64,000 nucleotides of DNA, taken from assembly GCA_016839765.1 (NCBI GenBank), contig JAEOTP010000016.1, positions 64,001-128,000 on the forward strand. Direction: 5' to 3'. Under the pieces are notes generated by a model, which did no database searches, had not been told where the DNA came from, and saw only the letters and a program-made list of their open reading frames with translations. The position numbers were made by a program, and so were the translations under genes. The DNA is from Promethearchaeota archaeon (lineage in GTDB: Archaea; Asgardarchaeota; Lokiarchaeia; Sigyniarchaeales; SOKP01). This document shows, piece by piece, positions 34,538 to 47,505 of this stretch (within the stretch, counting starts at the first letter, position 1; every line of letters starts with the position of its first letter).

Positions 34538-35071
34538 TCACGCTTCTTTCACACTTTCTAAACATGCTTTAGCAATTTTTTTAAAAGCTTGTTCTACATT
34601 TTCTCCTGTTTTAGCAGAAGTTTCTAAATAATCACAGCAATTAAGTCTTTTTACTAAATCTTCTGCTTCTGATCTCTCTACTTGGCGTTTTAAATCCGTC
34701 TTATTTCCAACTATTATCATTGGAATTGACTTTTTTACTGACTTTTTAATACTACTTATCCAACCAGGAAGTTTTAACAAGGATGGTTGACTTGTAACGT
34801 CATATACGCCGAAAGCCCCATTACTGCCCTTGAAATAGATTTGGCGAAGCTTACTAAATTGTTCCTGACCACCAATATCCCAAAGGAGTAATCTAACATT
34901 TGTATTTTCAACTTCTACATCTTTTATTAAAAAATTTGAGCCGATTGTTTGTTTTAATTCTGGATTAAAATAATCCTTTATGTATCTAATCAAGAGGGAG
35001 GTTTTACCAACTCCACCCGCCCCAAAAAGAGTAATCTTAAATTTAAATGTGTTCTTCTGCATTTTAATCAA
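34538..35071 (-). CDS. Rab-like small GTPase
   Basis: GAGGVGKT, TIG, WDIGGQE, GNKTD, ETSAK. Confidence 0.95.
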   Translation of the reverse strand: MIKMQKNTFKFKITLFGAGGVGKTSLLIRYIKDYFNPELKQTIGSNFLIKDVEVENTNVRLLLWDIGGQEQFSKLRQIYFKGSNGAFGVYDVTSQPSLLKLPGWISSIKKSVKKSIPMIIVGNKTDLKRQVERSEAEDLVKRLNCCDYLETSAKTGENVEQAFKKIAKACLESVKEA

Positions 35072-39528: not shown

Positions 39529-40770
39529 ATGTCTACTTTTTTTACAGAAGAGTCGTTGCAGAGAATACGCTATCTGCATTTTAAAATTAAAAAATTAGAA
39601 GAGGCCTTAGAAAAAGAGGAAGAACACTTCAGTTTGGATGATTTGAATCTTATATTAGAATATACTAAAATATTAAATATTAATTATCAAAATCACAATC
39701 AAGCTGAAATTATAAAAAAATTAGATATTACTCCTAATTATTTAGATCCTCTTGAAAATAATCGCGAAATTGAGATTAAGGATTTAATGTTTGAATGTGC
39801 TCGTGTCTTATCGGTTTTAGCCAAAGCCTACTCTCAATTATCTGAGAAATTTGAAGATGAGGAAGATTGGGAAAATTCAGTTGTTGCTATGTCTGAAAGT
39901 AGTAAGATTTATAAAACAGCAGCTTATTTCAGCACAGCAGTAGTCCTACAGAACGATCTCGGTAAAACACTAAACCCCGAACATCTTGAATTAAATTCGG
40001 AAGAGACTCGCGTATTGGCGCAAAGTGTCGCTGCTTTACGAGAAGAAAACAAAAATAATGTTTACTTTGCCTCAAAACTTTATGCAGGTTTAAGTAGCTT
40101 ATCAAAAAGAATCTTTTATTTAAAGAAACATGATGAAAAGAAAAGGCATCAGTTAAGAGCCCAATTTCATTTTGATATGGGAAAAGCCTGCCATTTAAAG
40201 GCTATTGCTTCATTAGAATCATCAATCACCACAATAAATAAAGAAAAAGTACAAAAATTACAGCAAAAAGCTAATTTTTATTATAAGAAGGCTGAAGAAA
40301 TCTGGGAGGATATGTATAAGGATTTACCTAATTTATCGGAAGAAGAGCAGGATAGTATCCAACTAAATTTATCCATTGTCAAGGATTTATTGAAAAATAA
40401 TGATGTGGAACCTTTAGATTATGAAGAGATTAAAAGAATACAGGATCCAGAACCTATAGTAATTATCCCTGAAAATTTAGCTCCATTTGTTCCCAAAAAT
40501 ATTGTATATTTGACCAAATTTGTGCCTAAAGATTTAAACATTAAAAGATTTAGAACATTCCAAAAGAAGAAATTAGAACAGAAAATTCCTTATAGTAAAC
40601 GAGAAAAATTAAATGATAAAAAAGCAGGAATAGTAAGAACGATTAATGAATTAAAATCTTTAAGAGAAAATAACGAAATTGATATTGAAAAATTTGCAGA
40701 ACTTATGGAGAAATATTCTACTAAACTTAAAATGATTGATACAGCAATTGAAAAATTAGCAAAACAATAA
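39529..40770 (+). CDS. Helical protein, Bro1-domain-like with C-terminal steadiness-box-like hairpin
   Basis: LMFECARVLSVLAKAYSQL, LNPEHL...VLAQSV, ASKL; C-terminal IVRTINELKSLRENNEIDIEKF. ORF certain, family call tentative. Confidence 0.55.
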   Translation: MSTFFTEESLQRIRYLHFKIKKLEEALEKEEEHFSLDDLNLILEYTKILNINYQNHNQAEIIKKLDITPNYLDPLENNREIEIKDLMFECARVLSVLAKAYSQLSEKFEDEEDWENSVVAMSESSKIYKTAAYFSTAVVLQNDLGKTLNPEHLELNSEETRVLAQSVAALREENKNNVYFASKLYAGLSSLSKRIFYLKKHDEKKRHQLRAQFHFDMGKACHLKAIASLESSITTINKEKVQKLQQKANFYYKKAEEIWEDMYKDLPNLSEEEQDSIQLNLSIVKDLLKNNDVEPLDYEEIKRIQDPEPIVIIPENLAPFVPKNIVYLTKFVPKDLNIKRFRTFQKKKLEQKIPYSKREKLNDKKAGIVRTINELKSLRENNEIDIEKFAELMEKYSTKLKMIDTAIEKLAKQ

Positions 40771-41370: not shown

Positions 41371-43098
41371 ATGGCTCATTTAACCGAAGAAGAAATCGAA
41401 GATTTAAAGAAAATTCATCCTCAAAAGCGCATTTTACGGTTTATTTATCTAGTTTGTGGCAATTTTATCATATTATTGGGATTATTGTTATTATTTACAG
41501 GTTTTGATTTTGGCATCAAATTCGAAGATATTAATATTTCTTTTATCATTGATTTATTATTTATTGTATTTGGTATGATAATCGCGTCAAAATATTTTAT
41601 TGCCCCTTATTATCTTCGTGAAAATTCTCTAAAATTTGTAAATTTACGAAGTTTAAGGGAACCTGTTGATAAAACGGTTAAATTCTATTCTCTTACGATT
41701 TCAAGACTTGTAGCAACAATTTTTATGATTATGGCAGGAGTAATTTCTTTTTTAATTTTTGGTTTAGATGTCGGTCATGAAGTAAAGTATGGTAGTGCTG
41801 TTGTACTTGGAGGACCCTCCTTTTTTTATGTGACTGGACTTCCTGCTTTAGGGTTTGGATTTTGTTTATTATTATATTTTTTATTGAGCTTGTTTAAAGG
41901 AAGATTCTCGAAGTCAAAGAATTTTCTTTTCTTTTATGAAATTAGACCAGGATTTCCATGGTTAACTGAGGTACCAAAGAAGGATATAGAAGCAGTTAGG
42001 TATCAGAATAATCATCTGGGTCCTAAATTAGGATGAATTATGCTTTTATTCCCTTTTATTACCTTACAATTAATGACCGCAATTCCCCTATTTGCTATTG
42101 AAAAAGCAGGACCAGAATATGTATTATCATGGATTTTCATGATTATATCGATATTAGAAATTATTTCCTTAATTCTATTAATTATTTTTCCCCAAAATTA
42201 TTTCGAAATAGCCACAAAAGATAGACTTTATGAGATGTGGTTTTCTCCAATTAAATCTAAACACCAAAAGTATTTTAAAGATGAATTTAGCGATTTTTTA
42301 GACTGTAAGATAAAAGTATCACCTAAGAAAAGTGAGATTAATCAATCGAGTAATTCAAAAGCACCTTCTCTCTCAGAAAGCATTTTTTCTAATTTAGATC
42401 CTAAACAATTTCAACTATTTAGGTTAATTTTTGGTACATTTTTAATAGTTGGAGCAATAGTTATGCTTAGCCAAATGGTTTTATTCGGTCCATGGGTGTG
42501 GTGGATTTCATTGATGTATGGATTTATCCTACTTATTAAAGCTTTTTGTTATGATTTCAGTAATAAAAATGGAGATATGTTTCAGCTTGATGAACAAAAT
42601 AATATTTTCAGATTTAAGCGATTATTTAAATTCAAATTTCATTACATTACTGCATTTAAAGTTAAAGAAATAAAAATTATAAAGTGGTTTAGAAAATTAG
42701 ATTTTTTTGATATCATAGGATTAGGAGGATTGTTAATATTTTTAACCCTACAACAAGCTGAAGGATGGTTTTTAGCAGATACTCCTCAGTTAATTTCTGA
42801 TAACATTTTTAGTACATTTTATATGATTATCGTATTCCTGTTCGTTTTTTTCTATTTGTGTGTCCCTATTGATGTAATCGAGTTTATAACTCCTACAGTC
42901 ACGTATAGAATTAATGTAACTACTAAAATCAAGAAAAAGAACTTATTCTTCAAATATCTATACAATTTAAAAAACTTTCCGAAAGGAATTATTACAAAAG
43001 ATACAAAAAGAACATTTTCAATTAGAATAGGACTTATTGGAGCCTTGATTATAGGTACCTTATTCTATTTTATTATTTTTATTATTTTTATTTTCTGA
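41371..43098 (+). pseudogene. Polytopic membrane protein interrupted by one in-frame TGA (42034-42036); ORF track gives 41371..42036 and 42040..43098
   Basis: Same frame (offset 669 = 3x223); junction GGA TGA ATT ATG at the start of a TM segment. Confidence 0.65.
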
Positions 43099-46254: not shown

Positions 46255-47505
46255 ATGAATGATAGAAGCAACAAGGATCAAGATTCAAAAAAAAAATCAC
46301 TCAATCAAGACAAATTTGAAGATTCAGGAGAAGATAATAACAATTTAAAATCTATAAGGTTGACGGAATTATCTCCAACTGATAAACTAATACAAAAATA
46401 TGGAATTAATCCTGCGAAAACACCCGTTTTATTGAAGCTTAATGCCTATCGAAGAATGGTTGGATATGCAATGAGATATGCTAATAATGAATTATCGGCA
46501 AAAAATTGGCGCGAAGTTTATGGAATCCTAATTGGATCTATAGATAACAATAAAGAAGTGATTATAAAAGATGCTATTCCAATGATTGTAGGAGACCGCG
46601 CAGGTGTAAGATATGAAAACAAACAATATGTTGATATGGCTCAAATTGATGAATCCGTATATCAAAAGTCCATTCAAGATAAAAAGAACGATTTTATAAT
46701 AGGATGGTGGCATACTCATCCTGGATTTAAGTTTTTTTTTAGTTCTGTAGATTGCTTAACTCAATTAGGGTATCAAATTCCAAATCCATTTGCGGTAGGT
46801 TTAATTTTTGATCATTGTGAATTAAAATCTACAGATTATTATCTAGGAGTTGCTGCACTACGCATGTTAAATCCAGAACAAGAAATGCTTTCTACATACG
46901 ATTTTACAGATTTGAAATTTGAATACCCTAAAAAAGATATGGTGAAAAAAGTTACTCCAATTTTAAAAGATTTAGATAAAAGTATTACAAAAGTCTTAAA
47001 GGAAGTAAAATATATTGACCAAACTTTACGTAAGAGGTATTTAGCTCAATTACAGAGAAATTATGGATTAATTTTAGTACCTAAAAGTGATATTATAGTA
47101 ACTGCTGATGAAGAGGAAGCTGAAGAGGATGAGAGATATTTATATGAATGGGATCCTGATTTCTTTAAAAAAAGTTTTAGGATTCCTAAGTTCAGAGAAA
47201 AAGTGGAAGAGGATATTAAAAAGTATGAAGAATCTTTATTAGAAATCAAGAAAAGTGATGGTGAAGCAAAATTTAAAGAAAAGAGAGAAAAATTTAAGAA
47301 AAAAATTCATGCACTTTTAGCAAAACCAAATGATTGGTATAATAGATGTATTGAAGATTTCACTAAACGTATTGAAATTATTTTTCCTTATTATGATTAT
47401 TTAGATACCAATGAACGTAAGATAATTGAACATTTTGAGTCTAGAAGCTCTGAGTATTATAAAATTTTAGACTATTTAAATTCACGTTCAGAATTTAATC
47501 TATAA
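46255..47505 (+). CDS. JAMM/MPN+ metalloprotease (Rpn11-like) with long helical C-terminus
   Basis: EVYGILIG and IIGWWHTHPGFKFFFSSVD (E...HxHx7Sx2D). Confidence 0.88.
   Translation: MNDRSNKDQDSKKKSLNQDKFEDSGEDNNNLKSIRLTELSPTDKLIQKYGINPAKTPVLLKLNAYRRMVGYAMRYANNELSAKNWREVYGILIGSIDNNKEVIIKDAIPMIVGDRAGVRYENKQYVDMAQIDESVYQKSIQDKKNDFIIGWWHTHPGFKFFFSSVDCLTQLGYQIPNPFAVGLIFDHCELKSTDYYLGVAALRMLNPEQEMLSTYDFTDLKFEYPKKDMVKKVTPILKDLDKSITKVLKEVKYIDQTLRKRYLAQLQRNYGLILVPKSDIIVTADEEEAEEDERYLYEWDPDFFKKSFRIPKFREKVEEDIKKYEESLLEIKKSDGEAKFKEKREKFKKKIHALLAKPNDWYNRCIEDFTKRIEIIFPYYDYLDTNERKIIEHFESRSSEYYKILDYLNSRSEFNL

Follow-up and report, generated by a model that had tools for sequence, protein, structure and literature searches.

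The stretch of DNA analyzed here, referred to as the window, comprises 64,000 nucleotides of a Promethearchaeota archaeon genome (contig JAEOTP010000016.1, positions 64,001 to 128,000). An open reading frame (ORF) at 39529-40770 had been proposed from the sequence alone to encode a Bro1 domain fused to a steadiness-box (SB) hairpin resembling that of the ESCRT-I protein Vps23/TSG101. In eukaryotes, Bro1 domains serve for docking to ESCRT-III, the machinery that cuts membranes. The gene and its features, in window coordinates and amino acids (aa) of the product, are the following.

39529..40770, + strand: whole gene, ATG start and TAA stop; 413 aa consisting of a Bro1-fold domain, a linker and a C-terminal helical hairpin
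39532..40497, + strand: Bro1-fold domain, aa ~2-323, from predicted-structure matches; Bro1 matches end at model residue 321-324
39736..39774, + strand: short beta-hairpin, aa 70-82 (DSSP strands E70-73 and E79-82), preceding the conserved D85/E89 helix
39868..40080, + strand: helices building a predicted concave pocket for peptide binding, aa 114-184 (register set manually from the AQ motif)
40444..40494, + strand: Pro-rich extended segment closing the Bro1 domain, aa 306-322; P309, P314, E315 and P322 invariant
40498..40581, + strand: basic low-confidence linker, aa 324-351 (model confidence, pLDDT, 52-59 over aa 331-360)
40582..40767, + strand: two-helix hairpin of the SB/CdvA/SHOCT type, aa 352-413, closest to the Asgard Vps23 SB

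A sequence search with this ORF recovered 648 homologues at E<=0.001, and changes relative to close homologues were found mainly at third codon positions (51 synonymous and 22 nonsynonymous codons against locus L003). Since it has this many homologues and its substitutions are concentrated at third positions, ORF 39529-40770 is a real gene. Homologues and related loci carried the labels Promethearchaeota or Lokiarchaeota, which makes the window Lokiarchaeial, and, as the original prediction expected, those with a name were solely "hypothetical protein"; the automatic cluster name in the ESM Atlas was "putative BRO1 domain-containing protein". All motifs quoted in that prediction were found in the claimed order (LMFEC... 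at aa 86, TLNPE... at 147, ASKL at 181, KACHLKA at 219, KNND at 289 and IVRTINEL... at 368), although KNND varies among family members.

Matches of two predicted models to Bro1 domains exceeded those to all other helical folds by a Z gap of 9-11 units, and the match took in the non-repeat beta-hairpin and the Pro-rich tail. The models showed the boomerang-shaped helical fold with a beta-hairpin, of about 350 aa, that is distinct from generic TPR proteins, and neither TPR repeats nor SHOCT were the best matches; a TPR match as good as Bro1, which had been named as a finding that would count against the prediction, was thus not observed on the models. The predicted Bro1 fold stood far above chance at the structure level, whereas its proposed span of aa ~60-300 had to be widened to about aa 2-323. 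Both D85 and E89 are invariant in the family alignment, and the beta-hairpin in front of them may be the counterpart of the ALIX Phe105-loop hairpin, shortened here. At the sequence level, identity to solved Bro1 domains (yeast Bro1p 1ZB1, ALIX 2OEW/3C3O, HD-PTP 3RAU, BROX 3R9M/3UM3) was 10-15%. No Pfam BRO1 match was obtained for the query; the best family member reached 33.3 bits (E 3.2e-8) against PF03097, below the gathering cut-off of 35.1 bits, and L125 reached 19.5 bits. A PF03097 scan of 151 Asgard genomes gave nothing above the cut-off and missed the gene's own family. PDB sequence searches with the query, P0148, A1, A2 and A4 failed to find a Bro1 chain and reached Vps23 without significance, the query alone giving no match at all. 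On the strength of the models, we consider it very probable that the domain, though divergent, is truly homologous to that of eukaryotic Bro1 proteins.

The protein modelled here is a Bro1-fold protein and not an ALIX orthologue. Its predicted domain aligned to ALIX, HD-PTP, BROX and Bro1p only from their chain residue 19-39 onward, the first ~20-40 residues of the eukaryotic domains being absent, and the V domain (PF13949), proline-rich tail, PTP domain and CAAX box of eukaryotic Bro1 proteins are also lacking. After the Bro1 domain the chain continues for only 90 aa, which form the linker and one SB-type hairpin. BROX, with a Bro1 domain and a short tail, is the nearest eukaryotic architecture, and the combination of Bro1 with SB is not known from eukaryotes.

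The C-terminal region was predicted to fold into two antiparallel helices (aa 355-380 and 386-412, pLDDT about 90), a hairpin of about 60 aa superposing on yeast Vps23 (2p22_A) with a root-mean-square deviation of 1.2 A over 62 residues. In hhalign comparisons the hairpin scored 54 (97%) with the Asgard Vps23-SB profile over 54 gapless profile columns, or 36 (92%) when close orthologues only were used, against 29-37 with SHOCT profiles, 31 with Vps28-SB and <=16 with reversed or shuffled controls. Its best genome matches outside its own family were the Vps23 and Zn/PH/SB hairpins. The two-helix hairpin, hydrophobic register and short turn are shared with the SBs of ESCRT-I (Vps23/TSG101, PF09454; Asgard UEV-Vps23, Vps28 and Znr_CC_PH_SB cog.011556); on the other hand, its first helix is basic where that of Asgard Vps23 is acidic, and the turn Gly is mostly replaced by Asn or Asp. 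No UQ_con/UEV match and no stalk coiled coil typical of Asgard Vps23 were found. Pfam Vps23_core gave no match, yeast Vps23 was reached in sequence searches only at E 0.75 and 1.7, and the hairpin hidden Markov model (HMM), run against the source genome, missed its other SB proteins. The hairpin placed at aa ~360-413 by the original prediction is of the SB type and, of the profiles compared, comes nearest to the Asgard Vps23 SB, with a span corrected to about aa 352-413; it is likely an SB homologue.

Makarova et al. 2024 (PMC10936438) described Asgard fusions of SB to non-core domains, for example BAR-SB, with a patchy distribution across lineages and a proposed docking to ESCRT-I, features which the Bro1-SB protein shares. 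The same paper states that Bro1/Alix orthologues are unidentifiable in Asgard; its text and the tables consulted do not name a Bro1-SB fusion, which its Fig. 6B may draw under another label, e.g. TPR. Eme et al. 2023 (PMC10307638) claimed Bro1 homologues in Asgard; these belonged to Hod-, Njord- and Thorarchaeia, and Lokiarchaeia were not among them. In the "Bro1" rows examined in supplement file 5 of that work, to which others may be added, the Pfam entry is PF18097, the 38-position Vta1_C model, and the three proteins considered in full have about 75-155 aa, below the size of a Bro1 domain, suggesting that the label in this widely cited table of eukaryotic signature proteins is a mismatch resting on another Pfam model. 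An Asgard Bro1 is reported in the main text of neither Hatano 2022 nor Koestlbacher 2026, nor in that of a 2026 structural-clustering preprint or a 2026 review, although the supplementary tables of Koestlbacher 2026 may list the family. No description of a Bro1+SB fusion was found in the literature searched.

Of the 134 genomes in the gene's Lokiarchaeial family, 127 had a match to the Bro1-SB family, a near-universal retention. Many of these genomes also carry longer paralogues with an N-terminal helix-hairpin-helix module (HHH_5) before the same Bro1-SB core, none of which occurs in the source genome; these paralogues (P0121-P0135, e.g. L025:802-2781) have 500-770 aa and a low-complexity linker, and some genomes (G104 C60) carry two of them in tandem. 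Elsewhere the Bro1 part is joined to other modules. In family f16 (4/5) it was found with a different tail (L125:1333-2865, L027, L029): the full Bro1 fold, including the N-terminal helices, is followed by an acidic disordered linker and a ~75-aa alpha/beta C-terminal domain, and the gene adjoins 2-oxoacid oxidoreductase and histone genes. In f27, which includes one record labelled Heimdallarchaeota, it lies in a 371-aa protein with a Zn ribbon; in L126:913-2025 and L221:8001-9116 the ribbon is at the end, a JAB gene is 4 kb away, and the gene has an actin-like (ALP_N/MreB-like) gene on its upstream side and a small GTPase-like gene on its downstream side. In f30-f32, of the same class, it follows a JAB-like N-terminus in proteins of roughly 580-610 aa; L255:1438-3195 (-) and L256:223-1953 (+) encode 577-586 aa with a JAB/MPN-like N-terminus and a Bro1-family domain (E about 1e-19 against the family profile), without a hairpin. 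Most other Asgard families searched gave no match to the family Bro1 profile. One candidate ALIX-like protein, L032, with weak BRO1 and ALIX V matches, was rejected, its ESM features pointing to helix-turn-helix/FilR1-like regulators and the Bro1 profile matching 0/7 in its family. The hairpin part of the profile also retrieved L130:1363-2214 (-) of f16, a Cdc48 N-domain with an SB-like hairpin and a Zn ribbon.

ESCRT-IIIA/B, Vps4, Vps28 and other SB proteins are encoded elsewhere in the source genome. Two ESCRT-III genes are on contigs C33 (ESCRT-IIIA) and C57 (ESCRT-IIIB), the Zn/PH/SB gene is also on C57 and vps28 on C34, whereas the Bro1 gene is on C67, and no ESCRT gene was detected in the window, as had been foreseen. 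Weak C-terminal SB-like hairpins were seen in the products of C75:47035-48906, C66:3612-4976, C39:6079-7443 and C50:14309-14767 (E 0.007-0.11 against the Asgard SB profile), which are possible partners of the Bro1-SB protein.

We propose, with a probability of about 0.5, that the protein is an ESCRT-associated adaptor made of a divergent Bro1 homologue and an SB-type hairpin. The hairpin would pair with its SB counterparts in ESCRT-I/II-like proteins of the same genome (Vps28 and the Zn-ribbon/PH/SB protein), in parallel with SB pairing in the eukaryotic headpiece and with the proposal of Makarova et al. for Asgard SB fusions. In its concave groove the Bro1 domain would then hold an amphipathic helix. 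The likeliest candidate is the one at the C-terminus of ESCRT-IIIB (Snf7/CHMP4-6 class), which would open a path to ESCRT-III parallel to Vps22/Vps25. That the protein forms the full bridge from ESCRT-I to ESCRT-III of the original prediction is a tentative extension, and it is equally doubtful, if conceivable, that an ancestral Asgard Bro1 was wired, in this Lokiarchaeial family, to the ESCRT-I SB as a one-chain link from headpiece to ESCRT-III bypassing ESCRT-II. If this were true, a second, ALIX-type path to ESCRT-III would be older than eukaryotes, and other lineages would have combined the same domain with JAB, HhH and Zn-ribbon modules.

The pocket residues given in PMC4772496 and PMC5501724 were placed on the query by hand, with the AQ motif as anchor, the ALIX numbering being checked against the PDB with two 25-residue ALIX motifs. 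In this register A168, F180 and L184 would correspond to ALIX F199, I212 and L216 (L189, L202 and I206 in HD-PTP), and E115 and V119 to K147 and K151. Two of the three CHMP4-pocket hydrophobics would then be kept in the query, and the I212- and L216-equivalent positions are hydrophobic in nearly all members. In ALIX, F199D and I212D abolish CHMP4 binding (PMC4772496). HD-PTP tolerates loss of K151 and its pocket accepts helices without the CHMP4 Trp (PMC4751086, PMC5501724). A complex prediction of Bro1 aa 1-330 with the 62-aa ESCRT-IIIB tail scored 0.00 in two runs; the fold of the partner was uncertain, and the score is evidence neither way.

Several observations weigh against an ESCRT adaptor. 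Unlike in eukaryotic Bro1 domains, the F199-equivalent is Ala in 33/41 members, Leu occurring only in deeper branches (5/16 diverse members), and the K147-equivalent is acidic, mostly Glu. The C-terminal motif of CHMP4 contains a Trp, and the ESCRT-IIIA and -IIIB tails of the family end in a conserved amphipathic MIM1-like helix without it. The f16 and f27 variants lack the SB hairpin, and the search of the sister family f2, in a class that still runs ESCRT, gave no family member, two single-contig genomes (4.4 and 6.0 Mb) being among those covered. Five ESCRT queries against the window and 80 related loci (flanks up to 6 kb) detected no ESCRT-III, Vps4, Vps23 or Vps28. The hairpin shape was equally matched by the OST1 C-terminus, an integrase coiled coil and CdvA, shape by itself being unspecific; the SB and SHOCT-hit profiles matched each other at 97%, and since the two sets overlap the margin of SB over SHOCT is moderate. 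Scores with the SB HMM were obtained for paralogues and deep orthologues but for neither the query nor its near orthologues. With the I212 and L216 positions hydrophobic, the F199 position Ala, the HD-PTP pocket tolerant and the tails without Trp, a CHMP4-type pocket appears plausible but altered, and ESCRT-III tails may bind to it.

The changes at the F199 and K147 positions could also mean that the groove of a real Bro1 homologue holds a non-ESCRT-III partner, the hairpin tethering a recruiter of cargo or regulators, and not an ESCRT-III nucleator, to SB-bearing ESCRT-I/II proteins. Eukaryotic Bro1 pockets do take other helices, HD-PTP binding STAM2, SARA and endofin, and the fused domains vary across Asgard (HhH, JAB, Zn ribbon), but the two central pocket hydrophobics are retained and CHMP4 binding is the sole function common to ALIX, HD-PTP and BROX; we regard this alternative as unlikely, though a serious one. 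Somewhat more improbable is a Bro1-fold scaffold without an ESCRT link, in which the hairpin would be a generic SHOCT-type homo-oligomerisation module serving another process. The missing ESCRT synteny, the mutual SB/SHOCT match, the unspecific hairpin shape and the weak SHOCT matches of both P0149 and Odin Vps23 agree with such a scaffold, as does HHH_5 in the paralogues, which suggests nucleic acid; against it stand the score of 54 with the Vps23-SB profile compared with 29-37 for SHOCT, the Vps23 and Zn/PH/SB hairpins as best genome matches, and the lower likelihood of a chance union of two ESCRT-type modules in one chain. A TPR-like solenoid converged on the Bro1 shape, or a gene acquired from a eukaryote or virus, would suit the low identity, the Pfam score under the cut-off and the patchy distribution, but is very improbable given the Z gap in both models, which extends to the beta-hairpin and Pro-rich tail, the independent Pfam BRO1 match, the deep divergence inside Asgard (branches of 1.9-2.9 changes per site) and a viral fold library that gave no match at E<=0.001; an ancient transfer is a remote possibility.

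The stable neighbours of the gene are an ATP-grasp gene and genes for a 157-aa membrane protein, an ArsR-membrane protein, PRPP synthetase, NifU and a JAB protein. The last (46255-47505, +) is a JAB/MPN protein whose C-terminal ~240 aa are helical; the genome has seven such JAB paralogues, and this one is close to the Bro1 gene in 62/80 loci. Its proximity was dropped as support, as it has no Bro1-like part and is not the nearest of the seven to the JAB-Bro1 fusions. A Rab/Roc-like small GTPase is encoded at 34538-35071 (-), and a small GTPase is kept three to four genes upstream of the Bro1 gene even in loci of 26-29% identical orthologues (L133-L136). Two membrane-protein ORFs of 221 and 352 aa, 3 bp apart (41371-43098, +), are seemingly one longer gene in some relatives (e.g. 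L008, L011, L014) and absent at this place in others, and may represent a split gene.

Bro1/ALIX has been counted among the ESCRT parts missing in Asgard (Makarova et al. 2024), and a structurally clear Bro1 is now predicted in several Asgard families, which probably moves the origin of this module to before eukaryotes. Since Lokiarchaeial ESCRT-IIIA/B have been reconstituted in vitro (Melnikov 2025, Souza 2025, as cited in PMC12993045), the Bro1+SB fusion offers a direct and cheap test of an ancestral ALIX-type shortcut from ESCRT-I to ESCRT-III. Even if ESCRT-III binding fails, the protein would represent a new eukaryotic-signature domain in these archaea.
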